From NCBI RefSeq assembly GCF_030013205.1, contig NZ_CP122648.1: a DNA stretch of 64,000 bases; one strand, written 5' to 3'. Below, piece after piece: positions 8,839 to 58,068 of this stretch. Origin of the DNA: Escherichia coli. GTDB lineage: Bacteria; Pseudomonadota; Gammaproteobacteria; Enterobacterales; Enterobacteriaceae. The notes under the pieces are model-generated. The model was not told the origin of the DNA. It searched no databases and was given only the letters and a program-made list of their open reading frames with translations. Positions within the stretch are counted from its first letter, which is position 1; each line of letters starts with the position of its first letter. A program made the position numbers and the translations under genes.

Positions 8839-8946
8839 ATGACGCTCGCAGAACTGGGCATGGCCTTCTGGCATGATTTAGCGGCTCCGGTCATTGCTGG
8901 CATTCTTGCCAGCATGATCGTGAACTGGCTGAATAAGCGGAAGTAA
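8839..8946 (+). CDS. ldrD: Ldr family type I toxin, 35 aa (MTLAELGMAFWHDLAAPVIAGILASMIVNWLNKRK)
   Basis: Sits at the 3' end of ORF 8704..8946; product matches the 35-aa Ldr peptide family. Confidence 0.8.
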   Translation: MTLAELGMAFWHDLAAPVIAGILASMIVNWLNKRK

Positions 8947-9205
8947 CGTGTCAGACGGGCGTCAGGCTGCCGTAATGGCAAGTTGCGTCCGGATCAGGCC
9001 GCAGGGATAAAACTCTGCGGCCTTTTTCGTAAGAAAAATGCAACGGTTGCAAGCGGATAATATTCTGCGGAATGCGCAGCACAGAGTGAAGACGTGACGG
9101 ATTCCGGAACAGAAAAACAGTCGTAGAATCAGCGGCAAGCCGGAAAGGTTCCGGTGAGGCGCAATGTTGCGGGGGCTTTATCCCTGGTGGCATTGGTTGC
9201 TGGAG

Positions 9206-9273
9206 AGAGAAAACCCCCGCACGTTGCAGGTATGCACCTGACAACACCACGGGGGCCATTCTTGCATCCAAAC
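9206..9273 (-). ncRNA. rdl: Rdl-type antisense sRNA, copy 2, approximate ends
   Basis: Paralogous position in repeat unit 2; the 5' portion diverges from copy 1. Confidence 0.35.
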
Positions 9274-9321
9274 AATACAAGAATAGCCGCGAAACGTTGT
9301 CATTACAACAGAGGCGGCTAT

Positions 9322-9429
9322 ATGACGCTCGCAGAGCTGGGCATGGCCTTCTGGCATGATTTAGCGGCTCCGGTCATTGCTGGCATTCTTGCCAGCATGA
9401 TCGTGAACTGGCTGAATAAGCGGAAGTAA
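9322..9429 (+). CDS. Ldr family type I toxin, 35 aa, copy 2
   Basis: Same peptide as copy 1, in the second repeat unit. Confidence 0.8.
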   Translation: MTLAELGMAFWHDLAAPVIAGILASMIVNWLNKRK

Positions 9430-9687
9430 CGTGTCAGACGGGCGTCAGGCTGCCGTAATGGCAATTTGCGCCCGGACCAGGCCGCAGGGATAAAACTCTG
9501 CGGCCTTTTTCGTAAGAAAAATGCAACGGTTGCAAGCGGATAATATTCTGCGGAATGCGCAGCACAGAGTGAAGAAGTGATGGATTCCGGAACAGAAAAA
9601 CAGTCGTAGAATCAGCGGCAAGCCGGAAAGGTTCCGGTGAGGCGCAATGTTGCGGGGGCTTAATCCCTGGTGGCATTGGTTGCTGGA

Positions 9688-9756
9688 GAGAGAAAACCCC
9701 CGCACGTTGCAGGTATGCACCTGACAACACCACGGGGGCCATTCTTGCATCTAGAC
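9688..9756 (-). ncRNA. rdl: Rdl-type antisense sRNA, copy 3, approximate ends
   Basis: Paralogous position in repeat unit 3. Confidence 0.35.
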
Positions 9757-9804
9757 CATTCAAGAATAGCCGCGAAATGTTGTCATTACAACACAGGCGG
9801 CTAT

Positions 9805-9912
9805 ATGACGCTCGCAGAACTGGGCATGGCCTTCTGGCATGATTTAGCGGCTCCGGTCATTGCTGGCATTCTTGCCAGTATGATCATGAACTGGCTGAAC
9901 AAGCGGAAGTAA
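9805..9912 (+). CDS. Ldr family type I toxin, 35 aa, copy 3 (variant ...ASMIMNWLNKRK)
   Basis: Third repeat unit; one substitution (I to M) relative to copies 1 and 2. Confidence 0.8.
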   Translation: MTLAELGMAFWHDLAAPVIAGILASMIMNWLNKRK

Positions 9913-9998: not shown

Positions 9999-10907
9999 TT
10001 ATTGCGGGTAAGGCACCCAGTCGCCGCCGTTCAGGCGAACGTACGGTTTATCCTGGTATTGAATAACTACTGCATTTGAGTTCTCGGAGACCGGTGCTGT
10101 TTGTGGTAACCCACTGGTGAGTTTTTTCCAGTCAACATTGTCTTCGGAGAAAATCTTGCCATCAAGAACGCGAACCACCAGATCGGAGATAGCCAGGAAG
10201 CTGCTCGGTTGGTCGATGACAATCGGTGCCCCCTGATGTGGTGCCTTCATGCCGAAGAATTTCACCCCAACGGGGACGTCTGTGATAGACGGGCTAGGGA
10301 TATCACGTAGGCCAGATACCTGCATTCTGTCGCCCTTCAGCGCGCCACCGTGTTCCGGCACCACTACCACCATCACTTTACGACCCGACTTCTCCAGTTC
10401 AGTAAAGAAGGCGTCCAGCTCATCAAAGAATTTCTGTGCTCGCGCTTTGTAATCCGCTGTTTTGCTGACGCCCGGATAATGGTTGCCGTCATGCAGTGGA
10501 AGCGTGTTGTAGAACGTGGCACTACGGCTGTTTTTATCTTTTTCGGTAACGTCCAGCCAGCGGTTAAGCACGGCGGTATCGTCATAAACCGGCGAACCAT
10601 CAAAGCCCAGCAAAATAACCGGCAGATTTGTTTGATCCATCAATTCGGTCTGCATGCCGCCATTTTCGCGAACTTCTTTCAAAAAACCGCCGAACTGGCC
10701 GTTATGTCCCATCATCAGGTGCTGGGTAAAGCCCAGTTTCGACAGGTTATCAAACAGATAGCAGTCATTATTTGCCGGTTGATACAGATTAGTATGCGAA
10801 GTCTGCCCGCAGCTGGCGCGCAGTAAACGGATCGCCGCCGGAAGGTGACATTGCCGTCGAGTACTGGAGTACGGTGGCGAAAATTCCGGCTCGCCGTGGC
10901 GAAGCGA
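9999..10907 (-). pseudogene. bcsG: 5'-truncated remnant of cellulose phosphoethanolamine transferase gene (C-terminal about 240-300 codons only)
   Basis: Minus-strand frame is open from 10907 to the stop at 9999 and encodes ...YLFDNLSKLGFTQHLMMGHNGQFGG...NGGDWVPYPQ; no N-terminal TM region, promoter or RBS; abuts a bcsC fragment on the opposite strand. Confidence 0.7.
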
Positions 10908-40322: not shown

Positions 40323-40660
40323 TTTAGTCCCTGAAAATTCTTGAGAAATAACGGTTCTTTAAATTGCGCGCGAGGAGAGATATGAGGGATTTACAGACCA
40401 GCGGCATAGTGGGGTTGTCAGCCAGTAAGGTGGGATACAGGCATAGTGATCGACATGGTGAGGTCAACGACAAAAAAAATGTTGCCGTTCTGCCAACAGT
40501 TCCTGCCAGCATTCGGGCAACGAAGGGTTCTACTGGTGGATACACATACCAGGGGAATAAAGTCGTTTTAACCTCTCCTTTAGTAATCACCGGGGGTAAT
40601 GAAATCAGCATCTGCATCCCTCGTCATGCCAGCCATCAATTTCAGTTGCTTATGTCCTGA

Positions 40661-43651: not shown

Positions 43652-44299
43652 ATGACAGCAGAATTTATTATACGTCTTATACTCGCAGCAATTGCCTGTG
43701 GCGCTATTGGCATGGAAAGGCAAATGCGCGGCAAAGGAGCAGGGTTACGCACACATGTATTAATTGGCATGGGAAGCGCCCTGTTTATGATTGTTTCGAA
43801 ATATGGTTTTGCTGACGTGCTGTCTTTAAATCACGTCGGACTGGACCCCAGCCGTATTGCTGCTCAGGTGGTGACGGGCGTCGGGTTTATCGGCGCAGGT
43901 AACATTCTCGTTCGTAACCAAAATATTGTAGGTCTGACGACGGCAGCGGATATCTGGGTGACCGCCGCCATTGGTATGGTTATTGGTAGCGGTATGTACG
44001 AACTGGGCATTTATGGTTCAGTGATGACCTTGCTGGTGCTGGAAGTCTTCCATCAATTAACCTTCCGCCTGATGAACAAAAATTACCATTTACAGCTGAC
44101 ATTAGTGAACGGTAATACGGTATCAATGCTCGACTGGTTTAAGCAGCAAAAAATAAAAACGGATTTAGTTTCGTTGCAGGAAAGTGAAGATCATGAAGTG
44201 GTCGCCATTGATATCCAGCTTCATGCCACAACGTCGATAGAAGATCTGTTGCGATTATTAAAAGAGATGGCAGGGGTGAAAGGCGTTTCAATTAGCTAA
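43652..44299 (+). CDS. yhiD: MgtC/SapB-family inner membrane protein
   Basis: 215-aa product from the ATG at 43652 (MTAEFIIRLILAA...). Confidence 0.85.
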   Translation: MTAEFIIRLILAAIACGAIGMERQMRGKGAGLRTHVLIGMGSALFMIVSKYGFADVLSLNHVGLDPSRIAAQVVTGVGFIGAGNILVRNQNIVGLTTAADIWVTAAIGMVIGSGMYELGIYGSVMTLLVLEVFHQLTFRLMNKNYHLQLTLVNGNTVSMLDWFKQQKIKTDLVSLQESEDHEVVAIDIQLHATTSIEDLLRLLKEMAGVKGVSIS

Positions 44300-44350
44300 T
44301 CTGTATAGTTATTTATTCACAGGAGTACCAGAGCGGTACTCCTGTTGGTT

Positions 44351-45121
44351 TTAATGATCGAGGACGATCAGTGGTGAATGGTTGGCAGGATCTTTAAGTA
44401 CGGTAATATCCGCGCCGTAGAGCATTGTCAGCGCCTGCTGTGTCAATACGTCCTGCGGTTTACCATTTGCGATAACCTTTCCTTTTTGCATTAATACAAT
44501 ACGGTCTGCATAACGCGCGGCAAGATTTAGATCGTGCAATACGCAGCAAACATTGAACTGCCGTTCGTGAACTAACTGGCGTAATAAACGGAACAAGTGC
44601 TGCTGATGGTGAATATCCAGCGCCGAAGTTGGTTCATCAAGAAATAACCATTTCGGTGAGGGAGTAGGTTCCCAGAGTTGCACCAGCAGGCGCGCTAATT
44701 GTACGCGCTGTTGTTCACCACCGGATAATTGCCGATAGTCGCGGTTTGCTAACGCCTGACAGTCACATAACGCCATTATTTGTGCTGTTTCATTATCCTG
44801 ATTACCAGTACGATGCGGATGCCGACCCATCTGGATAACTTCTTGTACGCTGAATGGAAACGCCATGTGGCTATTTTGACGCATCACGGCCCGGTGTTTC
44901 GCCAGTTCAGTAATCGACCATTCATTTAATGGCTTATTAAACAACCGACATTCGCCGCTATCAGGTTGAAGATAGCCGGTTAACTGGCGAAGCAGCGTAG
45001 ATTTTCCCGCACCATTAGGGCCGAGAATGGCAACAATTTCCCCACCGGGAAAAGTCAGCGAGACATTGTCAGTCAGACGCCGCCCCTGAAGGCTATAAAC
45101 CAGATTCTGGGCGCTGATCAT
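44351..45121 (-). CDS. chuV: haem ABC transporter ATP-binding protein
   Basis: 256 aa from the internal ATG ([11 protein letters not shown]...); Walker [10 protein letters not shown]; signature LSGGEQQR; 4-nt overlap with the upstream permease gene. Confidence 0.85.
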
Positions 45122-46110
45122 GTGATCCTCCGGTTGCGCAGAATCAACCACATAAAATAAGGACCGCCAAGCAGGCTGGTTAATAATCCCACGGGCATTT
45201 CTGCTGGCTGTACCAGCGTGCGGGCAAGCGTGTCTGCCATCAGCAATAAACAGGCTCCGGCGAGGGCGGAGCAAGGGATTAGCCAGCGGTGATTTGCCCC
45301 GGTAGTCATACGAATCAGATGCGGGATCACCAGGCCAATAAAGCCGATAATGCCGCTTACCGATACGGCGGCACCAACGAGCAGTGAGCTCACTAACAGT
45401 AATTGCTGGCGTTTACGCTTAACGTTCACGCCGAGGTAGTGGGCTTCTTCATCACCGAGCTGCAGTAAATTCAGCGTTCCGGCGAGACAAGTTGTTGCGA
45501 TAATGGCCGGTAGGATGAATGAACTGGCAACCAATAACGTCGGCCATTGCGCCTTTCCAAGATTGCCCATCATCCACAATGTGAGTTGTCGTAGCTGCTG
45601 CTCATCGCCGATATAGCTCAGGATGCCGATCGCTGCGCCGCACAGGGCATTGATGGCGATACCGGCGAGTAATAATTGCATCATGCTGCCATCGCGATGG
45701 CGCTGCGTGATGAGAAAAATGATGGTGCAGACCACTAAACTTCCGGCAATGGCAAACACCATTTGCTCATAGAGCACCAGCACCACTGGGAAGGAGAAGG
45801 GCAGCACAATAGCAACGCCAACCATTAATGCAGAACCGCTACTGACGCCGAGTAATCCAGGGTCAGCCATTGGGTTGCGAAAAAGCCCCTGCATAATTAC
45901 CCCGGCGGTTGCCAACGCTGCACCTACCAGCACCGCCAGCAAAACCCGTGGTAGACGAATATTGAGCCAGATATCGCGGTATTCCTCATCAAAAAGGGCA
46001 TCAAAACTGATCTTTAACGCTCCCTGACTGGCACCGAACAGCACCAGGGCAAGCAATAATAGTGATAGCCCCATAAAGACCCTGGCGGATGAAAATGAAT
46101 CCTTGAGCAC
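45118..46110 (-). CDS. chuU: haem ABC transporter permease (FecCD family)
   Basis: 330-aa polytopic ORF, translationally coupled to chuV. Confidence 0.85.
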
Positions 46111-46160
46111 GCAAAACTCCGTTATGACGTTGCGGCGCGGAGAGTCTGCGCCGCATGGGA

Positions 46161-46784
46161 TTACGCCGGTTTCAGGTCAGGTTCAATCAGACTGTAGATC
46201 TGCTTGTTGAGTGCTGGCGCGTTTGCCAGTTCATGAATGTGTGCAGCGACATCGGCACGGTGAACAAAACCATGACACTCCTGATTTTGTATCCGTTGTG
46301 CTTTGCCCGTTGCCGCCCCATCAAGCAGACCGCCAGGGCGGAGAATGGCGTAATCAAGCTGGCTGGTTTGCAACCAGCTTTCCGCCAGCGTTTTTTCCCG
46401 TACCGCCTGACCAAACGCAGCCTTTGCCCGCTCCGATAAAAACGGCCAGCTATCGCCGCATCCCAAAGAGGTCACCAGAATCATGCGACTGATGCCGGCC
46501 TTTTCGGCCTCATCAATCACTGTTCTGTGCGCCAGATAATCCTGAGCTCCTCCCATTGTTGAGATGATAAGCGCATCCGGGCCAGCTGCGCGGCAAGCAG
46601 CCGCAACTACGCTGGCATCACAGGCGTCGCCTGTAAAAACCTGTACGCCTTGTTGCGCCAGTTTCGTGGCGGCATCGGCATGACGAACGACAGCAACGAC
46701 CGGACGTTGTTCCGCCAGCGCCAGTTCAAGCGTTCTGGCACCCACACCTTTTCCGCCTGCGCCAAAGAGTAGCCACGGCGTCAT
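46161..46784 (-). CDS. chuY: NAD(P)-binding Rossmann-fold protein of the haem-utilisation operon (anaerobilin reductase-like)
   Basis: 207 aa with N-terminal GAGGKGVG dinucleotide-binding motif; 1-nt overlap with chuX. Confidence 0.75.
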   Translation of the reverse strand: MTPWLLFGAGGKGVGARTLELALAEQRPVVAVVRHADAATKLAQQGVQVFTGDACDASVVAAACRAAGPDALIISTMGGAQDYLAHRTVIDEAEKAGISRMILVTSLGCGDSWPFLSERAKAAFGQAVREKTLAESWLQTSQLDYAILRPGGLLDGAATGKAQRIQNQECHGFVHRADVAAHIHELANAPALNKQIYSLIEPDLKPA

Positions 46785-47278
46785 CAGGCGTGTTCCTTTA
46801 ACGATGCCGCCAGAGCATGGAAAGCGTTGACCTGTTCGCTCAGGAGCTGACGATGGTCATCCCTGCCGAGGAAGATTTTCAGCATGGCGCTGCCTTCCTT
46901 ATTGAAAAAGAGAATAGAGGCGGTGTCCATGCCCATAAATTTACGTTCGATCAAGGCAATATGCGTGCAGTTTTCTGCTTTGATATGCCCGGACATGCCG
47001 TGCTTTCCGCGTAGGTTGAAATAGCCGTGGCGGTGGAAACCCGAAGGCAGTTCGCCGCTAAATTCGAGGATTACATCGGCAGTATGTACTAACGTGGTGA
47101 CGTTGCCCCATTCGCAGACGGTATCCCAGACAGTATCGAATTTATCGCCTGACACTATGGTAGAGGAGGGCAGATTTTTCACTACTTCCAGCAGTGTGGT
47201 GTTGTATTGTTCGGCTACCACCTCCAGCGTACCGTCCGGCTCCGTTTTCAAAAATTCTTGTAACGAGACATGGCTCAT
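46784..47278 (-). CDS. chuX: small cytoplasmic haem-binding protein
   Basis: 164-aa ORF between chuW and chuY in the operon. Confidence 0.75.
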   Translation of the reverse strand: MSHVSLQEFLKTEPDGTLEVVAEQYNTTLLEVVKNLPSSTIVSGDKFDTVWDTVCEWGNVTTLVHTADVILEFSGELPSGFHRHGYFNLRGKHGMSGHIKAENCTHIALIERKFMGMDTASILFFNKEGSAMLKIFLGRDDHRQLLSEQVNAFHALAASLKEHA

Positions 47279-47290
47279 AAATCACTCCTG

Positions 47291-48628
47291 TTATGGTTTT
47301 TCACGCACAATCGCTGGCGCATTAAGTACCTGAATTAGTTCATTAAGAGACTGCAAAATATTGCTTGCCCAGAAACGACCTTCATTAGTCAGCCGCAGGC
47401 AAGTTGAAGCATCGCGACTTAAGCCTTTTTGGTGCCATTGAGCCAGTAACGGCGCGAGTTTTTCGGCATGTGGCGTAAGTTCATCCAGCGGTACACGCGC
47501 TGTTTCAACACCTGACTGCAAGGTATGACGCCATTGCGCATCACGTTCGGCGTTACGCATGATCATCATCAGCGGTTTTTTGCCTGCCGCGACGGATTCA
47601 TGCCAGGTCTGAAGATTGCGTTCGTTCATCCAGGAGTAACCATTAATCGAACCGCCGGCTCCGGAACCAAAGGCCAGACAATCGGCACCTTGTTTAATCA
47701 GCAGGTTATAGAGATTGCGTTCGCGTGTGGTACGGCCCCAGTGGCTGTTACTGATGCAGCGCCAACCGGCTTCGTCCATGAAGTCACACCCTTGCAGATA
47801 AAGATCGCGACGTTCTGCCGGAGAGGGCACGGTAGTACGCCCATTTTCCACGGCTTTGCCCAGCGGTGTATTGGGCAGGACATTGAGCGCATAGAGATCG
47901 ACGCCGTCGAGACCGATATCGCGAGCAATAGCCAGATCTTCTCCCCAGGTTTGCGCATCCTGACCCGGCAGGCCAAACAGCAGGTCACAGACCACCGCTG
48001 CACGGTCGCGTTTGACCAGGCTTTCCATAAACGCAATGGCGGTTGGGCCATCCGAGGTGCGGGCCATTTTCTTGCGGATTTTGCTGTTAAACGACTGAAT
48101 ACCAATTGAGAAGCGGTTTGCTCCTGCATCAAGGCAAGCATCGATTCGCTCAGCGTCAAAATTCAGTACCCGGCCTTCGATAGTGATTTCACAATCAGGG
48201 GTCAGTGGCAGCTTTTCTCGTAATGTATTGATAATTCTGGCTAAATCGTGTGCAGAAAGCGCGGAAGGCGTGCCGCCACCGAAATAGACCGCGTGGATGG
48301 GGGCAGACTGATGCAATACGCTGTCCGCTTCCATTTCTATTTCACGAATCAGGGCGTCGGTATAATGAGCACACGCATCTTCATTAAAACGGTTCTGATA
48401 AAAACCACAAAACGTGCAGTGTGTCGCACAAAAAGGAATGTGTAGATAAACCAGTCGCTTACGTGGTGATACCGTTTGATTGATCATCTCTTGCCAGGTC
48501 TGTGCCAGTTGCTCTTTGGCAACCGGAATGGCTCCACGAAACGGCATCATGGCGCGCCTGTCTTTAAATGGCTGATCACCGTCTAAAGCAAAATGTGGCG
48601 TGAGATCCAGGGTGTTATTTGCGTTCAT
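47291..48628 (-). CDS. chuW: radical-SAM, HemN-like anaerobic haem-degrading enzyme
   Basis: 445 aa; radical-SAM cysteine motif CATHCTFC near the N-terminus. Confidence 0.8.
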   Translation of the reverse strand: MNANNTLDLTPHFALDGDQPFKDRRAMMPFRGAIPVAKEQLAQTWQEMINQTVSPRKRLVYLHIPFCATHCTFCGFYQNRFNEDACAHYTDALIREIEMEADSVLHQSAPIHAVYFGGGTPSALSAHDLARIINTLREKLPLTPDCEITIEGRVLNFDAERIDACLDAGANRFSIGIQSFNSKIRKKMARTSDGPTAIAFMESLVKRDRAAVVCDLLFGLPGQDAQTWGEDLAIARDIGLDGVDLYALNVLPNTPLGKAVENGRTTVPSPAERRDLYLQGCDFMDEAGWRCISNSHWGRTTRERNLYNLLIKQGADCLAFGSGAGGSINGYSWMNERNLQTWHESVAAGKKPLMMIMRNAERDAQWRHTLQSGVETARVPLDELTPHAEKLAPLLAQWHQKGLSRDASTCLRLTNEGRFWASNILQSLNELIQVLNAPAIVREKP

Positions 48629-48647
48629 TCGTCTGATTTAAATCCAT

Positions 48648-49562
48648 TTATTGCGGCCAAAGCTGCTGGTGTAAAGACTCAACGACATCAGCAATACGCG
48701 GACCCATTCCCAGAATCAGGTTTTGATCAACGGTGATAATGCGCTGGTTTTTCCATGCGGCAGTGTGGGTAATTCCGGCAATAGAACGTAGCCGATTAAT
48801 ATCGCCATCGACCATTTGTGAGGTTACGACAATCACTTCTGGATTGGCCGCAATCAGTGATTCTGCACTGTAGCTTTTGTACTGCTGGTGGGTTGCGACG
48901 TTTTCTGCTCCGGCAAGCGAAAGAATGGCGTCCGCGACGCTGCCTTTACCGGCAACTTGTGGCGCACTTCCGCCTGCGGAGAGAATAAACATGGCTTTAA
49001 CCGGGGCTTTTTTGGCCGCCACGTTTTGCTGTACTCGCTCCAGGCGTTGGTTGATCTGTGTCACCAGCGCCTCGCCTTGTTCAGGAACCTGTAGCGTTTT
49101 TGCCAGTTGGCGAATGTTGGCGTACATCTGCTCAAGGGTGGCAGGCACACGCGGCAGGGTAACGACGTTGACTTTCTGCGCCCGTAGTTGGTCGAGCACA
49201 ATTTGCGGTCCAGCATCCTGCCAGGTAATTACGCTATCCGGGCGAAGTGACAAAATGCCTTCGCTGCTGAGTTGTTTCCAGTAGCCAATATGCGGCAGTT
49301 TGGCGGTTTCTGGTGGATAAGATGTCGTTTCATCGACACCAACCACGCGTTCGCCAGCGCCCATCGCGTAGATTAGCTCCGTCAGCGATCCTCCTGCGAC
49401 CACGATACGTTCGGCAGCCGTTACGCTAAAAGCCCAGCTAAGAGCCAGTACTGCCGTAAACAATTTTTTTCGTTTTACCGCGGTCTTCGCGGCAGAGGCC
49501 ACGGCTGAAATACATAACGTTAGTGGGGAAAAAAGAAACGGCCTGGTGATGATCCTTGGCAT
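48648..49562 (-). CDS. chuT: periplasmic haem-binding protein of the ABC system
   Basis: ORF 48648..49640; start placed at the ATG at 49562 (304 aa) because a Fur-box-like sequence at 49587-49606 would otherwise lie inside the coding region; start uncertain. Confidence 0.75.
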   Translation of the reverse strand: MPRIITRPFLFSPLTLCISAVASAAKTAVKRKKLFTAVLALSWAFSVTAAERIVVAGGSLTELIYAMGAGERVVGVDETTSYPPETAKLPHIGYWKQLSSEGILSLRPDSVITWQDAGPQIVLDQLRAQKVNVVTLPRVPATLEQMYANIRQLAKTLQVPEQGEALVTQINQRLERVQQNVAAKKAPVKAMFILSAGGSAPQVAGKGSVADAILSLAGAENVATHQQYKSYSAESLIAANPEVIVVTSQMVDGDINRLRSIAGITHTAAWKNQRIITVDQNLILGMGPRIADVVESLHQQLWPQ

Positions 49563-49586
49563 AATATGAGAACTCTTATCAAATTG

Positions 49587-49606
49587 AGAATGATCATGAT
49601 TATCAT
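49587..49606. promoter_or_regulatory. Fur box upstream of chuT (chuTWXYUV operon)
   Basis: GAATGATCATGATTATCATT resembles the Fur consensus GATAATGATAATCATTATC. Confidence 0.6.
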
Positions 49607-49935
49607 TTGGGTTATATATGAAATACAACCGTCGATTCAATACGTAAGGCGTTACAAGCGTATTTATTTTTGATTTTTATCAAGATGCTTCGTCAGCTAA
49701 CGTTCTTGTTACCGACTAAATTTCAGCGCGGGAAAAAGCTGAGAACCCAGAGATATCAAGGCTTGCAGAGCAAAGCGAAGAGAAAATTATCACTGTTAAC
49801 GACAAAGTTTAGTGATGAGGTCATGGGGGAATAACCATAAAAACAAAGTGGTTTCCAGGGCGCAGGATAAGTTTCATAACCCCCTGTTTATTGTGTTAAT
49901 GGCGGTTAAAAAAAGCTTGATCATAAAAAATTGAT

Positions 49936-49954
49936 CGATAATAATTCTCATTAT
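49936..49954. promoter_or_regulatory. Fur box in the chuT–chuA divergent region (candidate chuA promoter operator)
   Basis: GATAATAATTCTCATTATC, about 290 bp upstream of the chuA ATG. Confidence 0.6.
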
Positions 49955-50244
49955 CACGTTTGCGCTTAACAAAACACGACCATATGGATAACAAAACCAT
50001 AGCATTTGCAAGGGATAACGCACAGCGCTCTTCACTCCTGATGGGGCATATCGTTTTGCCTGACAAAGAGGGCGTGCTTTTGCGTATTTGCCGAGATACC
50101 AGGCAATTTCATGGGATATAAACGCCTGTAAACTCACCCGGCGAATATTATCGCTCTGAATTTTAAATAAATTTATTTTTCGCCAGCCACCCCGGTATTA
50201 ACCCAGGCAGCCAGCATTTTTTATTTTCCTCATGGAGAATCGCT

Positions 50245-52227
50245 ATGTCACGTCCGCAATTTACCTCGTTGCGTTTGAGTTTGTTGGCTTTGGCTGTTTC
50301 TGCCACCTTGCCAACGTTTGCTTTTGCTACTGAAACCATGACCGTTACGGCAACGGGGAATGCCCGTAGTTCCTTCGAAGCGCCTATGATGGTCAGCGTC
50401 ATCGACACTTCCGCTCCTGAAAATCAAACGGCTACTTCAGCCACCGATCTGCTGCGTCATGTTCCTGGAATTACTCTTGATGGTACCGGACGAACCAACG
50501 GTCAGGATGTAAATATGCGTGGCTATGATCATCGCGGCGTGCTGGTTCTTGTCGATGGTGTTCGCCAGGGAACGGATACCGGACACCTGAATGGTACTTT
50601 TCTTGATCCGGCGCTGATCAAGCGTGTTGAGATTGTTCGCGGACCTTCAGCATTACTGTATGGCAGTGGCGCGCTGGGTGGAGTGATCTCCTACGATACG
50701 GTCGATGCAAAAGATTTATTGCAGGAAGGACAAAGTAGTGGTTTTCGTGTCTTTGGTACTGGCGGCACGGGGGACCATAGCCTGGGATTAGGCGCGAGCG
50801 CGTTTGGGCGAACTGAAAATCTGGATGGTATTGTGGCCTGGTCCAGTCGCGATCGGGGTGATTTACGCCAGAGCAATGGTGAAACCGCGCCGAATGACGA
50901 GTCCATTAATAACATGCTGGCGAAAGGGACCTGGCAAATTGATTCAGCCCAGTCTCTGAGCGGTTTAGTGCGTTACTACAACAACGACGCGCGTGAACCA
51001 AAAAATCCGCAGACCGTTGAAGCTTCTGATAGCAGCAACCCGATGGTTGATCGTTCTACAATTCAACGCGATGCGCAGCTTTCTTATAAACTCGCCCCGC
51101 AGGGCAACGACTGGTTAAATGCAGATGCAAAAATTTACTGGTCGGAAGTCCGTATTAATGCGCAAAACACGGGGAGTTCCGGCGAGTATCGTGAACAGAT
51201 AACAAAAGGAGCAAGGCTGGAGAACCGTTCCACTCTATTTGCCGACAGTTTCGCTTCTCACTTACTGACATATGGCGGTGAGTATTATCGTCAGGAACAA
51301 CATCCGGGCGGCGCGACGACGGGCTTCCCGCAAGCAAAAATCGATTTTAGCTCTGGCTGGCTACAGGATGAGATCACCTTACGCGATCTGCCGATTACCC
51401 TGCTTGGCGGAACCCGCTATGACAGTTATCGCGGTAGCAGCGACGGCTACAAAGATGTTGATGCTGACAAATGGTCATCTCGTGCGGGGATGACTATCAA
51501 CCCGACCAACTGGCTGATGTTATTTGGCTCATATGCCCAGGCATTCCGCGCCCCGACGATGGGCGAAATGTATAACGATTCTAAGCACTTCTCGATTGGT
51601 CGCTTCTATACCAACTATTGGGTGCCAAACCCGAACTTACGTCCGGAAACTAACGAAACTCAGGAGTACGGTTTTGGGCTGCGTTTTGATGACCTGATGT
51701 TGTCCAATGATGCCCTGGAATTTAAAGCCAGCTACTTTGATACCAAAGCGAAGGATTACATCTCCACGACCGTCGATTTCGCGGCGGCGACGACTATGTC
51801 GTATAACGTCCCGAACGCCAAAATCTGGGGCTGGGATGTGATGACGAAATATACCACTGATCTGTTTAGCCTTGATGTGGCCTATAACCGAACCCGCGGC
51901 AAAGACACCGATACCGGCGAATATATCTCCAGTATTAACCCGGATACCGTTACCAGTACCCTGAATATTCCGATCGCTCATAGTGGCTTCTCTGTTGGTT
52001 GGGTCGGTACGTTTGCCGATCGCTCAACACATATCAGCAGCAGCTACAGCAAACAACCTGGCTATGGCGTGAATGATTTCTACGTCAGTTATCAAGGACA
52101 ACAGGCGCTCAAAGGCATGACCACTACTTTGGTGTTGGGTAACGCTTTCGACAAAGAGTACTGGTCGCCACAAGGCATCCCACAGGATGGTCGTAATGGA
52201 AAAATTTTCGTGAGTTATCAATGGTAA
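50245..52227 (+). CDS. chuA: TonB-dependent outer-membrane haem/haemoglobin receptor
   Basis: 660 aa; signal peptide; TonB-dependent receptor architecture; C-terminal aromatic residue (...SYQW). Confidence 0.9.
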   Translation: MSRPQFTSLRLSLLALAVSATLPTFAFATETMTVTATGNARSSFEAPMMVSVIDTSAPENQTATSATDLLRHVPGITLDGTGRTNGQDVNMRGYDHRGVLVLVDGVRQGTDTGHLNGTFLDPALIKRVEIVRGPSALLYGSGALGGVISYDTVDAKDLLQEGQSSGFRVFGTGGTGDHSLGLGASAFGRTENLDGIVAWSSRDRGDLRQSNGETAPNDESINNMLAKGTWQIDSAQSLSGLVRYYNNDAREPKNPQTVEASDSSNPMVDRSTIQRDAQLSYKLAPQGNDWLNADAKIYWSEVRINAQNTGSSGEYREQITKGARLENRSTLFADSFASHLLTYGGEYYRQEQHPGGATTGFPQAKIDFSSGWLQDEITLRDLPITLLGGTRYDSYRGSSDGYKDVDADKWSSRAGMTINPTNWLMLFGSYAQAFRAPTMGEMYNDSKHFSIGRFYTNYWVPNPNLRPETNETQEYGFGLRFDDLMLSNDALEFKASYFDTKAKDYISTTVDFAAATTMSYNVPNAKIWGWDVMTKYTTDLFSLDVAYNRTRGKDTDTGEYISSINPDTVTSTLNIPIAHSGFSVGWVGTFADRSTHISSSYSKQPGYGVNDFYVSYQGQQALKGMTTTLVLGNAFDKEYWSPQGIPQDGRNGKIFVSYQW

Positions 52228-52275
52228 TCATCTGCCCCGATATTTCGGGGCATTTATCTGGAAGGAAGAGAGACA

Positions 52276-53304
52276 ATGAACCACTACACACGCTGGCTTG
52301 AGTTAAAAGAACAAAATCCCGGAAAGTACGCGCGTGACATCGCAGGTTTAATGAATATTAGCGAAGCAGAACTGGCATTTGCGCGCGTCACGCACGATGC
52401 GTGGCGGATGTGCGGCGATATCCGTGACATTCTGGCGGCGCTCGAAAGTGTTGGCGAGACCAAATGTATTTGTCGTAATGAATATGCAGTCCATGAGCAA
52501 GTTGGTGCGTTCACAAACCAGCATTTGAACGGACATGCCGGATTGATCCTCAATCCGCGCGCGCTGGATTTGCGTCTGTTTCTCAATCAATGGGCCAGTG
52601 TTTTTCACATTAAAGAAAATACGACTCGTGGCGAACGCCAGAGTATTCAGTTCTTTGATCATCAGGGCGATGCATTACTAAAAGTTTATGCCACCGACAA
52701 TACCGATATGGCGGCATGGAGTGAGCTTCTGGCACGGTTTATCACCGATGAGAATACGTCGCTTGAGTTAAAAGCCGTTGATGCGCCAGTTGTTCAAACG
52801 CGAGCCGATGCCAGTGTGGTCGAGCAAGAGTGGCGGGCGATGACCGACGTTCATCAGTTTTTTACGTTGCTCAAGCGCCACAACCTGACGCGCCAACAGG
52901 CGTTCAATCTGGTGGCAGATGATTTGGCCTGCAAAGTATCCAACAGTGCGTTGGCGCAAATTCTTGAATCTGCACAGCAGGATGGCAATGAAATCATGGT
53001 GTTTGTTGGCAACCGTGGCTGCGTACAGATTTTCACCGGTGTGGTAGAAAAAGTGGTGCCAATGAAAGGTTGGCTGAATATTTTTAACCCGACGTTTACT
53101 CTTCATCTATTAGAAGAGAGCATTGCTGAAACCTGGGTAACCCGTAAACCTGCTAGTGACGGTTATGTGACCAGTCTGGAATTGTTTGCCCATGATGGTA
53201 CGCAGATAGCGCAACTTTATGGTCAACGTACAGAAGGCGAACAGGAGCAAGCGCAATGGCGTAAGCAAATTGCTTCGCTGATACCGGAAGGCGTTACTGC
53301 ATAA
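52276..53304 (+). CDS. chuS: cytoplasmic haem-degrading / haem-trafficking protein
   Basis: 342-aa ORF immediately downstream of chuA. Confidence 0.85.
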   Translation: MNHYTRWLELKEQNPGKYARDIAGLMNISEAELAFARVTHDAWRMCGDIRDILAALESVGETKCICRNEYAVHEQVGAFTNQHLNGHAGLILNPRALDLRLFLNQWASVFHIKENTTRGERQSIQFFDHQGDALLKVYATDNTDMAAWSELLARFITDENTSLELKAVDAPVVQTRADASVVEQEWRAMTDVHQFFTLLKRHNLTRQQAFNLVADDLACKVSNSALAQILESAQQDGNEIMVFVGNRGCVQIFTGVVEKVVPMKGWLNIFNPTFTLHLLEESIAETWVTRKPASDGYVTSLELFAHDGTQIAQLYGQRTEGEQEQAQWRKQIASLIPEGVTA

Positions 53305-53364
53305 CGTATAATTAACGGGAGGTCTGGCTATTTATTGCTGGGCCTCTTTATATTAATCAATCGA

Positions 53365-53895
53365 TCACACCAGATAATCAATATGCTGATGGCGTACCAA
53401 CTCATTGATCCGCTTAAGATTGAGGATCATCATGATATTGTGTTTATGGCAGTAGAACGTTTTTAGCGATATTTTCAGTTTCTCCAGAATATCTTCCGTT
53501 GTCATTTGATTCGCAATGCAGCTCAGAACCTGATGCTGCTTGCGCGAAAGGGACACATCCGCTTCAGGCACAGAGCAGTAACTGCCATTGATGAGTGCGA
53601 CAAAGTCGATGATGGTGATAGTTCGCGGAACAAAGGTCACCGGTACTTTCCCCAGGCAGCGTTTAATATTAAAGGGAGAGAAAATAATCACATGGACAGG
53701 TTTTAATCGTTCAATTTGAGTGAGCAAATTAGAATGAAATACATTATTCATTAATGTATCAATAATGACGAAGGCATGCTGATGCAACATTACGTCGATC
53801 TCTTCTTCGTTCTGTATATGAACGACATTACCTTTACTCAGAATGTTTTTCATCGCAGTGAAGAACATCGTATCCCTGGTAATTATAAGAAACAT
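53365..53895 (-). CDS. dctR: LuxR-family transcriptional regulator
   Basis: 176 aa, AT-rich; conserved position next to slp. Confidence 0.85.
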   Translation of the reverse strand: MFLIITRDTMFFTAMKNILSKGNVVHIQNEEEIDVMLHQHAFVIIDTLMNNVFHSNLLTQIERLKPVHVIIFSPFNIKRCLGKVPVTFVPRTITIIDFVALINGSYCSVPEADVSLSRKQHQVLSCIANQMTTEDILEKLKISLKTFYCHKHNIMMILNLKRINELVRHQHIDYLV

Positions 53896-54858: not shown

Positions 54859-56082
54859 TTATGGGATTATATTCTGGTAATGATTTGATAAGCGAATTCT
54901 TTTGCCAGATGGTGTTTCTATTTCCACCCCATAATTTATAGTTTTTTCATCAGGTAGCGATCTCTTTAAATAAGGTGCGTATGACATTTTTTTTGGGTTA
55001 AGCGTCTCGTATTGAAATACTTCGAATTGATATTCAGACATTTCTGCCCATGTTTGAATTTTATTGTATCGGGGTAGTGTCGTAAAGGCTTTAACTTGCT
55101 TATAACATTGTTTTTTGAATTCTTGCTGATATTTTAATATGTCATTGTATGAAATATTGGTTATCCTGGCCTCTAAGAATTTAATTATTGTCGAAGCAAT
55201 TTCCGCTTTTGCTCGTAAAAAGTTGTCATTAATGGTTAATAATGTTGAAAATAAACCTTCGATTTGTTTGTCAAGATATTGTTCGTCTTTATATAATTTT
55301 GGGGTAGGGTGTTCTTTATGTGAAAAAATAGTGTCACCTAAATTTGCGTCAGTGAAATTTATATTAAGTAGATCTTCGAAATAAAACCTTGACAAGGTTA
55401 GAACGAACCCGGACAGGTTCTGTCCTGTCATATTGAAATCAATAAAGTTGGTTCCGGCAAAGACTTTCATCCTGTTTTTATTTTCACTGTGTTCAATATA
55501 TAACTTCGTCATTTTTTGATACAGGCTTTGAATATCTTTTATATTAGTCGGTAAGTCAGCTCGTTGTTCAGCAATAAAATTAGTATCTGAAAATATGGTT
55601 TGGACACTGAATGTTATGGGTATTCCCTCTTCTACGCTAATTTTAGTTATGATTGCCTTGTCGGGTTTAGGATTAGCGACAACAATGATTCGACATTCAG
55701 CACTTTTGTTCTTTTCGTATCTAATGTTATTAATTTGATTAAGTAGTCCCTGTGCCTGCCGCGTAAGTGGTGTCGAACTTATCGATTCAATGTTAGTAAT
55801 AAGACTTACAAGTTGAGCCACAACTTTTGAGTAGTCTGCATTTGTATATGTGGTGTTCGTGTGGCACGCATTAATTTGTTGGAGTTGTTGTTGCGCTAAA
55901 TCAAATTGTTCAGCGTTATATCCTTCTTCAGACAATGAAAAATTAATGGGTTGCTGTTCTTCCTGATTATCACAAGGCCACATCGGTGTGTCTGGTGTTT
56001 TAACATTGTCGGTATCTGTTGTGCGGTTATAAATATCGCCGTGATATGTATTTATCATACCTGGGGTAAAGTCAATTGACAT
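54859..56082 (-). CDS. yhiS: hypothetical protein, YhiS-like, apparently intact
   Basis: 407-aa uninterrupted ORF in an AT-rich segment; assigned from position between slp and the ars genes; function unknown. Confidence 0.6.
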
Positions 56083-56662: not shown

Positions 56663-57676
56663 TTAAAATAGCATTTGAGTCAAATAGCCCATCAAGATAG
56701 CCATACCTAATATAACCGTCAGGAATGCAACTATCATCGGTATTCTGAACATTGATTTAAGTAATATCACTTCCGTCAGACTTGCGCCGGCACTGCCGAT
56801 GATTAATGCCATTAATGCCCCCAGACCCATGCCTTTCGTCATCAGAACTGATGCCAGAGGGATAACCGCCTCTGCCCGGATATATAGCGGAATACCGACA
56901 ACGGCGCTCAATGGGATGGCGAAGGGATTATCTGCCCCTGCATGAGCGGCAATCCACTCTGAGGGAATAAAGCCATAAATAAAAGAGCCTATTAATACCC
57001 CTAACAAAAGATATGGCAGTACATCTTTAAACTGTTGCAACGCATCTTTGGTGGCTAGTTTTATGGGATTAATACTTACCACAGCTTTGGTACTGCAACA
57101 GTTTACTACAGGTTTCTCAATGGCTTTAGCCGCTGGACTACAGCAACTCACTTTTATTGGCGTATATGTCGTCCCCGGCGAAGTTTTGGCTGGAGCACAA
57201 CAATTTGCTGATGAGCTTTTACTGGCAATGATATGACGTTCAAATCCCAGGGAATCCAGGATAATACTGGCAAGTACGGAGACGCCGGCGGCGATAATCG
57301 CGTACAACAAGGTAACTTTCCAGCCAAAGGTCACCCACATTAACCCGACGATAATGGGATTAAGTAATGGGGAAACAAATAAAAAAGTGAGGGTCGGACC
57401 GAACCCGGCTTTCGCTGACAACAATCCACGTAACATTGGGATTGTCGAGCAACTACAGAACGGGGTAACGGCTCCCAACAGAGCCGCCAGGAGATAGCCT
57501 CTCCCTTTTCTGGCCCCCATCATCTGCCGGATTTTATGGTCTGGCACCTTTTGTCTTATCAGGCTCACACCGGCACTAATCACTATAAACAGCAAAGAAA
57601 GCTCAACGGCGAGAAACACAAACATCTCTGCGGCATCTTGCAGCATCGCAAGCCAACTACTCATACGTAACCTCAT
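56663..57676 (-). CDS. ArsP/DUF318-family permease with TPFCSCS motif and cysteine-rich loop (putative organoarsenical or metal(loid) efflux permease)
   Basis: 337-aa polytopic ORF containing GAVTPFCSCSTIP, which I recall as the ArsP signature, plus a central CC-rich segment (NCCAPAK...VSCCSPAAK...VNCCSTK). Confidence 0.7.
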   Translation of the reverse strand: MRLRMSSWLAMLQDAAEMFVFLAVELSLLFIVISAGVSLIRQKVPDHKIRQMMGARKGRGYLLAALLGAVTPFCSCSTIPMLRGLLSAKAGFGPTLTFLFVSPLLNPIIVGLMWVTFGWKVTLLYAIIAAGVSVLASIILDSLGFERHIIASKSSSANCCAPAKTSPGTTYTPIKVSCCSPAAKAIEKPVVNCCSTKAVVSINPIKLATKDALQQFKDVLPYLLLGVLIGSFIYGFIPSEWIAAHAGADNPFAIPLSAVVGIPLYIRAEAVIPLASVLMTKGMGLGALMALIIGSAGASLTEVILLKSMFRIPMIVAFLTVILGMAILMGYLTQMLF

Positions 57677-57771
57677 TGAATAAATCTATATTTCCAGAAT
57701 AATCGAAATGAAATTCAGATCAAGATATTTCTGGTATTATCGAAATATCAACCAGACAAAGGGGGTGTCAT

Positions 57772-58068
57772 ATGCAGTTGGAAGAAGTTGCTAAAGCGCT
57801 GAAAGAGCTAGGTCACCCGAGCCGTTTGTTCATATTCAAACACCTGGTCAAAGCGGGGGAACAAGGTTTGCCCGTCGGTGAGTTGCAAAAGCAGCTTGGG
57901 ATACCCGGCTCTACACTCAGTCACCATATTTCAGCACTGGTATCGGTAGGGCTGGTCAAACAAAACCGTGAGAGTCGAACGCTGATGTGTGTTTCGCAAT
58001 ACGCAATGCTGGAAGCGATAATTGAATTCTTACGCGAGGAGTGCTGCGTAAATAGCAAAATTGCCTGA
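57772..58068 (+). CDS. ArsR/SmtB-family metalloregulatory transcriptional repressor
   Basis: 98 aa with winged-HTH core (GELQKQLGIPGSTLSHHISALVSVGLV) and a C-terminal cysteine pair (EECCVN); divergent from the permease gene. Confidence 0.7.
   Translation: MQLEEVAKALKELGHPSRLFIFKHLVKAGEQGLPVGELQKQLGIPGSTLSHHISALVSVGLVKQNRESRTLMCVSQYAMLEAIIEFLREECCVNSKIA

Follow-up and report, generated by a model that had tools for sequence, protein, structure and literature searches.

The window analysed here is a 64,000-nucleotide stretch of Escherichia coli DNA (contig NZ_CP122648.1) in which eight genes that have no K-12 counterpart lie between yhiD and dctR. The locus raises the question of which system these genes encode, whether that system is intact, and whether the segment carrying it is mobile. 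The best explanation, with a probability of about 97%, is an intact copy of the canonical chu locus of E. coli (shu in Shigella) for haem uptake and utilisation, located at its usual place in the acid-fitness island. Nothing in the sequence was found that counts against this reading.

Segment borders and gene layout

Alignment with MG1655 shows that the chu segment is 9,060 bp in length and spans window positions 44305-53364. It is absent from K-12, where the yhiD-dctR spacer is 41 bp, and about 36 bp of that spacer is replaced by the segment. The first-pass annotation had placed the island at 44300-53360, which the aligned borders show to be accurate to a few bases. The features of the segment and its flanks are as follows.

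43652-44299, + strand: yhiD, left flank, an acid-fitness island gene common to K-12 (NF007431, 399 bits)
44319-44345, + strand: GC-rich hairpin with an 11-bp stem, between the converging yhiD and chuV
44351-45121, - strand: chuV, haem ABC transporter ATPase, 256 aa
45118-46110, - strand: chuU, haem ABC transporter permease, 330 aa, GTG start
46161-46784, - strand: chuY, NAD(P)H-dependent anaerobilin reductase, 207 aa
46784-47278, - strand: chuX, cytosolic haem carrier, 164 aa
47291-48628, - strand: chuW, radical-SAM methyltransferase that opens the haem ring anaerobically, 445 aa
48648-49562, - strand: chuT, periplasmic haem-binding protein, 304 aa as annotated
50245-52227, + strand: chuA, TonB-dependent outer-membrane haem/haemoglobin receptor, 660 aa
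52233-52252, + strand: GC-rich hairpin with an 8-bp stem and a trailing T-run, within the 48 bp between chuA and chuS
52276-53304, + strand: chuS, HemS-family protein of the cytoplasm that degrades/binds haem, 342 aa
53365-53895, - strand: dctR, right flank; K-12 homology restarts precisely at its stop codon

All eight chu open reading frames are intact: they begin and end normally and have no internal stop codons. The gene calls match the RefSeq annotation of a near-identical genome. The chuV-U-Y-X-W-T genes are on the minus strand and chuA-chuS diverge from them, which is the layout of the chu/shu locus, and the position is the chromosomal yhiD-dctR site within the acid-fitness island. The eight genes that had been reported here without K-12 counterparts are therefore all present.

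The start of chuV overlaps the stop of chuU by four bases (ATGA); the first-pass annotation had described the permease/ATPase pair as translationally coupled. The stop of chuX likewise overlaps the start of chuY, by one base (TGATG), and the coupling predicted from these overlaps is real at both junctions. At the remaining minus-strand junctions the genes are 12, 19 and 50 bp apart. The hairpin at 44319-44345 scores in a terminator scan as a plus-strand terminator after yhiD, and it may also act after chuV on the opposite strand. The hairpin at 52233-52252 may serve as a partial terminator or as an element of the mRNA.

Divergent control region

The control region between chuT and chuA is 682 bp in length and, with the start of chuA, displays three regulatory features.

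49586-49604, no strand assigned: Fur-box match upstream of chuT, three mismatches to the 19-bp consensus
49937-49955, no strand assigned: Fur-box match at the chuA promoter, two mismatches
50216-50247, + strand: shuA/chuA FourU RNA thermometer

Fur boxes are found at both divergent promoters as sequence matches; the scan gives four strand-matches in the window where 0.01 are expected by chance. The chuT box overlaps promoter-like hexamers at 49590-49561 on the minus strand and the chuA box overlaps hexamers at 49917-49945 on the plus strand. A generic promoter-hexamer scan of the sequence is not enriched relative to shuffles (9 found, 12.7 expected); what gives the hexamers weight is solely their coincidence with the Fur boxes. 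The hexamers at 49917-49945 would give chuA a 5′ UTR of about 290 nt, and a long regulated chuA 5′ UTR has been described (PMC9002310).

The thermometer matches Rfam model RF02597 at 60.1 bits (gathering score 58) and is located directly over the chuA ribosome-binding site and start codon. In the centroid fold its U-run is paired with the GGAGAA ribosome-binding site. The folding energy is not more stable than that of shuffled sequences (z = -1.09), thus the evidence for the thermometer is the covariance-model match.

Only one promoter-like site overlaps the chuT Fur box, and the RefSeq start of chuT (49562) falls inside its -10-like hexamer. For this reason the real chuT start may be downstream of the annotated one, e.g. 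at the GTG at 49502, which if used would give a typical signal peptide.

The integrity of the frames and of the control region bears on whether a missense or regulatory change specific to this porcine lineage could have silenced the locus or made it defective. Alleles at least 99% identical to that of the window are found in only 30 of 5,426 complete E. coli genomes, the allele carries a few private substitutions, and ChuX and ChuS differ from their O157:H7 counterparts at about 3% of residues. However the eight frames are intact, key motifs and regulatory elements are conserved, and the control region has the O157:H7 length with 96.8% identity. A loss of function is accordingly quite improbable.

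Composition, mobility and distribution

The chu island has a GC content of 50.3%, the window mean is 50.0% and the flanking acid-fitness genes are at 39.0%. The island is GC-richer than its AT-rich flanks, as first described, but since its value equals the window mean the flanks are the compositional outliers and the island is not compositionally foreign.

No integrase, transposase, IS or tRNA is present at either border, in the annotation or among the open reading frames, which agrees with the earlier observation on integrase and IS. A search for direct and inverted repeats at the borders gave an 8-mer as the best shared word; it is not located at the borders and 19% of shuffles equal or exceed it, thus the flanking direct repeats of a classical mobile island are absent. 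Nucleotide divergence of the island from O157:H7 is 1.3-3.4% per gene and that of the flanks is similar, 1.4-2.6%.

Of 5,426 complete E. coli genomes, 2,238 (41%) carry the island, always on the chromosome and never on a plasmid. Almost all carriers have a single copy, and no more than one genome has it at a second place. The empty site as in K-12 is found in 3,179 of the genomes, and the island is absent from 59%. The sampled chu-positive genomes have identical break points (query positions 110 and 146), while chu-negative genomes share one 36-bp filler that has no similarity to either island end. Nearly all complete genomes thus carry one of two alleles at the yhiD-dctR site. The two alleles, together with the shared break points, suggest a single ancient replacement event after which both states have persisted.

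Absence from K-12 and from the majority of genomes, the discrete block with sharp borders and a contribution of chu to virulence in other pathotypes (PMC9002310) would be compatible with a recently acquired and potentially mobile pathogenicity island. Set against this are borders lacking mobility genes and significant repeats, an average base composition, confinement to one chromosomal place, common junctions with one shared empty-site allele, and an island divergence that tracks flank divergence. Recent acquisition is thus very improbable. The behaviour of the chu segment is that of a stable, vertically inherited presence/absence polymorphism and not that of a mobile element.

The chuA gene is a lineage marker used in Clermont typing. 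Both Clermont chuA primers match perfectly and predict an amplicon of 288 bp at 50480-50767, inside chuA. The other markers, yjaA, TspE4.C2 and arpA, are outside the window, thus the phylogroup is assignable only as chuA-positive. A porcine ETEC genome differs from the window at one base over 43 kb, and the source E. coli is virtually identical to genomes of porcine ETEC and O139:H1. The genome comparison agrees with the earlier proposal of a non-K-12 E. coli source; its description as a pathogen-associated lineage is loose, however, as the island is in 41% of complete genomes. Among the carriers are strains isolated from a laboratory mouse and from a wild marsupial. The chu locus marks a lineage and not pathogenicity as such.

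Transporter and haem-handling proteins

ChuA scores 588 bits against TIGR01785 (cut-off 317) and matches the PDB structures of ChuA (9dhe) and ShuA (3fhh) over its whole length. It is a TonB-dependent receptor orthologous to ChuA/ShuA, with 99.7% amino acid identity to the O157:H7 protein. It displays an N-terminal signal peptide and a C-terminal end in ...YQW, and the motif ETMTVTA is read as a putative TonB box. ChuT is annotated by RefSeq as the periplasmic binding protein, and the ShuT structure (2r7a) aligns with its residues 49-304. ChuU, annotated as ShuU/ChuU, has 99.4% aa identity to O157:H7 and matches BtuC/FecCD-type permease models, every one under its own cut-off. ChuV, whose RefSeq annotation agrees, scores 397 bits against NF010068 (cut-off 261) and displays a Walker A motif (GPNGAGKS) and an LSGG signature.

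ChuS matches PDB 1u9t and 4cdp at 754 bits and has His193, which is named as the ChuS haem ligand (PMC6018153); it is thus a HemS-family ChuS. ChuW scores 570 bits against the rSAM_HutW model TIGR04107 (cut-off 400) and has the cluster motif CxxxCxxC (C67-x3-C-x2-C). The PDB sequence search shows no close solved structure for ChuW, only HemN at 96 bits, thus its identification rests on TIGR04107. ChuX scores 210 bits against the HutX model TIGR04108 (cut-off 110) and also matches PDB 2ovi. ChuY has full-length matches to PDB 5guy (ChuY) and 5ffq and weaker ones to NmrA/NAD-dependent epimerase folds, which are consistent with a Rossmann fold. In the NCBIfam search no model matches ChuY, and ChuS has only a sub-threshold HutX match, thus the identity of both is settled by the PDB matches. 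The radical-SAM ChuW is accordingly accompanied by its ChuX and ChuY partners.

An unrelated TonB-dependent/ABC uptake system, e.g. for a siderophore or vitamin B12, is refuted by the family-model scores and PDB matches and has next to no probability, for although the permease and binding protein also match BtuC, BtuF and Fec/Fhu models through a common fold and superfamily, the non-haem matches are far under their curated cut-offs (BtuC 284 against 334, BtuF 107 against 234), whereas the scores for the haem-specific models exceed theirs and haem proteins with crystal structures are near-identical to those encoded here. The protein searches called for by the first-pass annotation therefore gave curated haem families and solved haem proteins, and its assignments of receptor, binding protein, permease/ATPase pair, ChuS, ChuW, ChuX and a Rossmann-fold ChuY all hold.

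Proposed mechanism and significance

The gene identities are from this analysis and the biochemistry is from work on the near-identical O157:H7 and S. dysenteriae proteins. By analogy with these, ChuA, energised by TonB, would move haem from host haemoproteins across the outer membrane, and ChuT would ferry it over the periplasm to the ABC importer ChuUV. In the presence of air, ChuS would bind and degrade haem in the cytoplasm with release of iron; its in vivo role, as a degrading enzyme or as a haem carrier/protectant, is debated (PMC6018153). Without oxygen, the ChuW methyltransferase would open the haem ring to give anaerobilin and iron, ChuX may serve as a haem buffer or carrier, and ChuY would carry out an NADPH-dependent reduction of anaerobilin. 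Each of the divergent promoters has its own Fur-box match and is predicted to be repressed by Fur loaded with iron. Translation of chuA would additionally be gated at 37 °C, with the FourU thermometer masking the ribosome-binding site.

The strain is thus genetically equipped to obtain iron from host haem with and without oxygen. For a strain positive for chuA the locus is unremarkable. The chu locus is already known: its mechanism and regulation are published (PMC9002310; PMC6018153), as are its genes, structures and chemistry, with layered regulation. The relevance of the present locus is in annotation and typing only. Novelty is rather doubtful and if present would be evolutionary, i.e. the single ancient replacement with both states kept, plus the minor point of the chuT start.

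Comparison with known systems

In Vibrio cholerae the operon is named hutWXZ (PMC6775658), and its genes serve haem utilisation under anaerobic conditions. ChuW and ChuX are within the HutW and HutX equivalog families, however the third gene in V. cholerae is HutZ, whereas here it is the ChuY reductase.

The Yersinia hem/hmu and Pseudomonas phu systems follow a like logic, which combines a TonB-dependent receptor with a HemS-family protein and an ABC importer that depends on a binding protein. Homologues detected are HemS (504 bits), PhuS (257), HmuT (150) and PhuR (129). Compared as single proteins, they show a much lower similarity.

The shu locus of Shigella dysenteriae is homologous (PMC9002310). 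ChuA matches the whole of ShuA (3fhh) at 1430 bits and ChuT matches ShuT (2r7a) at 542 bits, and the FourU thermometer family is common to both; the comparison here is by single structures and Rfam, and the species label is different.

The closest comparison is with the chu locus of E. coli O157:H7 (chuS-chuA / chuTWXYUV), against which alone the per-gene identities were computed. The layout is annotated identically in O157:H7 and IHE3034. In O157:H7, EHEC-specific sRNAs, Esr41 and the phage-borne AsxR, regulate chu and are encoded outside the island. The two loci have the identical eight genes, order, strands and insertion site, and control regions of equal length. All eight proteins are 97.0-99.7% identical, and the island, at 97.6% nucleotide identity, differs from that of O157:H7 only by allelic point differences.

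Gene content and borders

The interval between yhiD and dctR contains eight intact genes of the chu haem-uptake locus, as the first-pass annotation had proposed. The open reading frame listing is concordant with how RefSeq annotates E. coli ETEC4067 (NZ_CP122685.1), a near-identical genome that differs from the window by 1 base in 43,000. The listed genes show no internal stops in their reading frames. A 12-kb query spanning the region matches a group of porcine ETEC and O139:H1 genomes at 100% identity.

Genes of the yhiD–dctR interval (window coordinates, strand)
43652–44299, +, yhiD (flank)
44351–45121, −, chuV
45118–46110, −, chuU
46161–46784, −, chuY
46784–47278, −, chuX
47291–48628, −, chuW
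48648–49562, −, chuT
50245–52227, +, chuA
52276–53304, +, chuS
53365–53895, −, dctR (flank)

In K-12 strain MG1655, a 41-bp spacer separates the converging yhiD and dctR. By alignment, K-12 homology ends at 44304, five bases past the yhiD stop codon, and restarts at 53365, the dctR stop codon. Thus 9,060 bp (44305–53364) replace approximately 36 bp at the K-12 site, and the borders proposed from the sequence (44300–53360) were right to within five bases. The ~36-bp K-12 filler has no resemblance to either block end.

Protein identities

Four proteins pass curated NCBIfam models, each with its own cut-off: ChuV (haem ABC ATPase, 397 bits vs 261), ChuW (rSAM_HutW, 570 vs 400), ChuX (HutX, 210 vs 110) and ChuA (TonB-dependent haem/haemoglobin receptor, 588 vs 317). 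For ChuU and ChuT the matches are confined to sister families (BtuC, BtuF, Fec, Fhu) and fall below cut-off, the pattern expected for a haem member of the superfamily. A PDB sequence search matched five proteins full-length: ChuA (9dhe and ShuA, 3fhh), ChuS (1u9t, 4cdp), ChuX (2ovi), ChuY (5guy, 5ffq, with weaker NmrA/epimerase-type matches) and ChuT (ShuT, 2r7a, residues 49–304). ChuW has no close solved structure in this search, only HemN.

All eight proteins are 97.0–99.7% identical to those of O157:H7, the strain behind most chu biochemistry. ChuW displays CATHCTFC, and ChuV has the Walker A sequence GPNGAGKS and an LSGG signature. ChuA has a signal peptide, a terminal aromatic residue and the sequence ETMTVTA, read as a putative TonB box. 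ChuS contains His193, a haem ligand (PMC6018153). The models, structures, identities and motifs all support the gene assignments.

Distribution, stability and composition

An island-only query matched 2,238 of 5,426 complete E. coli genomes, always on the chromosome, almost always in single copy and at 96.5–100% identity (≥99% in only 30 genomes). The K-12 empty-site sequence is uninterrupted in 3,179 of the 5,426 and is interrupted at the same two positions in sampled chu-positive genomes; the two alleles cover essentially all genomes. Nucleotide divergence from O157:H7 per gene is 1.3–3.4% in the island vs 1.4–2.6% for yhiD, dctR and slp, thus the island has diverged together with its flanks.

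The island is GC-richer than the flanking acid-fitness genes, as described earlier (50.3% vs 39.0%), however it is close to the window mean (50.0%), and the compositional oddity is a property of the flanks. The annotation contains no mobility genes, which bears out the reported lack of an integrase or IS at the borders, and the island has no significant terminal repeats. Together with its flank-like divergence and average GC, this argues against a mobile island; the block behaves as a stable lineage polymorphism.

The two primers for the Clermont chuA marker have perfect matches and enclose the expected 288-bp product at 50480–50767. The proposed link to a pathogen-associated lineage holds in part: the chu locus is a marker of particular E. 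coli lineages, non-pathogens among them, and not of pathogens as such. The original observation is confirmed and its interpretation supported, with corrections of emphasis only; the chu locus was already known in full.

Other features of the window

The cellulose-synthesis locus (9999–13882) carries a deletion. A bcsG fragment adjoins a bcsC fragment near 10826–10892, each without its N-terminus, and bcsF, bcsE and bcsRQABZ are therefore missing. The approximately 50 bp between the fragments match neither gene in typical genomes sampled. This junction is uninterrupted in only 17 of the 5,426 genomes, the one listed being a swine isolate. At 8839–9912, Ldr-family type I toxin genes form a tandem array of three, spaced 483 bp apart.

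Between a yhiS-like gene and arsC (56663–58068) are a gene labelled "permease" and, divergent from it, an ArsR/SmtB-family regulator; K-12 has yhiS directly after arsC. The yhiS-like frame (54859–56082) is an unbroken 407 codons, the length of the two joined K-12 fragments, yhiS being split by IS5 in K-12; RefSeq calls the matching gene "frameshifted" over a shorter span (54966–56082). A RefSeq "hypothetical protein" CDS (40382–40660, +) is antisense to an Rfam ES205 sRNA match (40472–40543, minus strand, 105 bits) in the gadE–mdtE spacer, where K-12 annotation has the sRNA GadF. The CDS call looks doubtful.

Regulation and transcription units

A scan of the 64-kb window with the 19-bp Fur consensus (≤3 mismatches; 0.01 matches expected by chance) found only 49586–49604 and 49937–49955, both in the 682-bp chuT–chuA spacer. 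They overlap promoter-like hexamer pairs directed at chuT and chuA, respectively. A transcript from the predicted chuA promoter would have a leader of about 290 nt, in agreement with the long 5′ UTR, regulated in multiple ways, described for chuA (PMC9002310). The Rfam shuA/chuA thermoregulator matches at 50216–50247, over its gathering score, and the centroid fold has the GGAGAA ribosome-binding site paired to a U-run.

The promoter-like site overlapping the chuT Fur box has the annotated chuT ATG (49562) inside its −10-like hexamer. ShuT as crystallised starts at residue 49, and translation from a GTG at 49502 would produce a signal peptide of conventional form (KRKK, hydrophobic core, SVTA). 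The true chuT start may lie further downstream than annotated.

By analogy with near-identical proteins in the literature (PMC9002310, PMC6018153), low iron would release Fur repression, and at 37 °C the FourU element would melt to allow ChuA translation. Haem would enter through ChuA with TonB energy and reach the cytoplasm via ChuT and ChuUV. In air it would be degraded or handled by ChuS, whose role in vivo is still under discussion (PMC6018153); anaerobically, ring opening by ChuW would yield anaerobilin and iron, ChuY would reduce anaerobilin, and ChuX would carry or buffer haem.

A strong hairpin (44319–44345) lies between the converging yhiD and chuV, and a hairpin with a T-run (52233–52252) is in the chuA–chuS spacer. 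The 50-bp chuY–chuU spacer (46111–46160) has a GC-rich inverted repeat, GCGGCGC...GCGCCGC, without a T-run, which may serve in processing or stabilising the mRNA between chuTWXY and chuUV. Translational coupling, suggested earlier for the permease/ATPase pair, is plausible there and at chuX/chuY because these genes overlap (ATGA at chuU/chuV, TGATG at chuX/chuY); the other three junctions are gaps (chuT–chuW 19 bp, chuW–chuX 12 bp, chuY–chuU 50 bp). This pattern is consistent with the published units, a chuAS operon plus chuTWXY and chuUV (PMC9002310).
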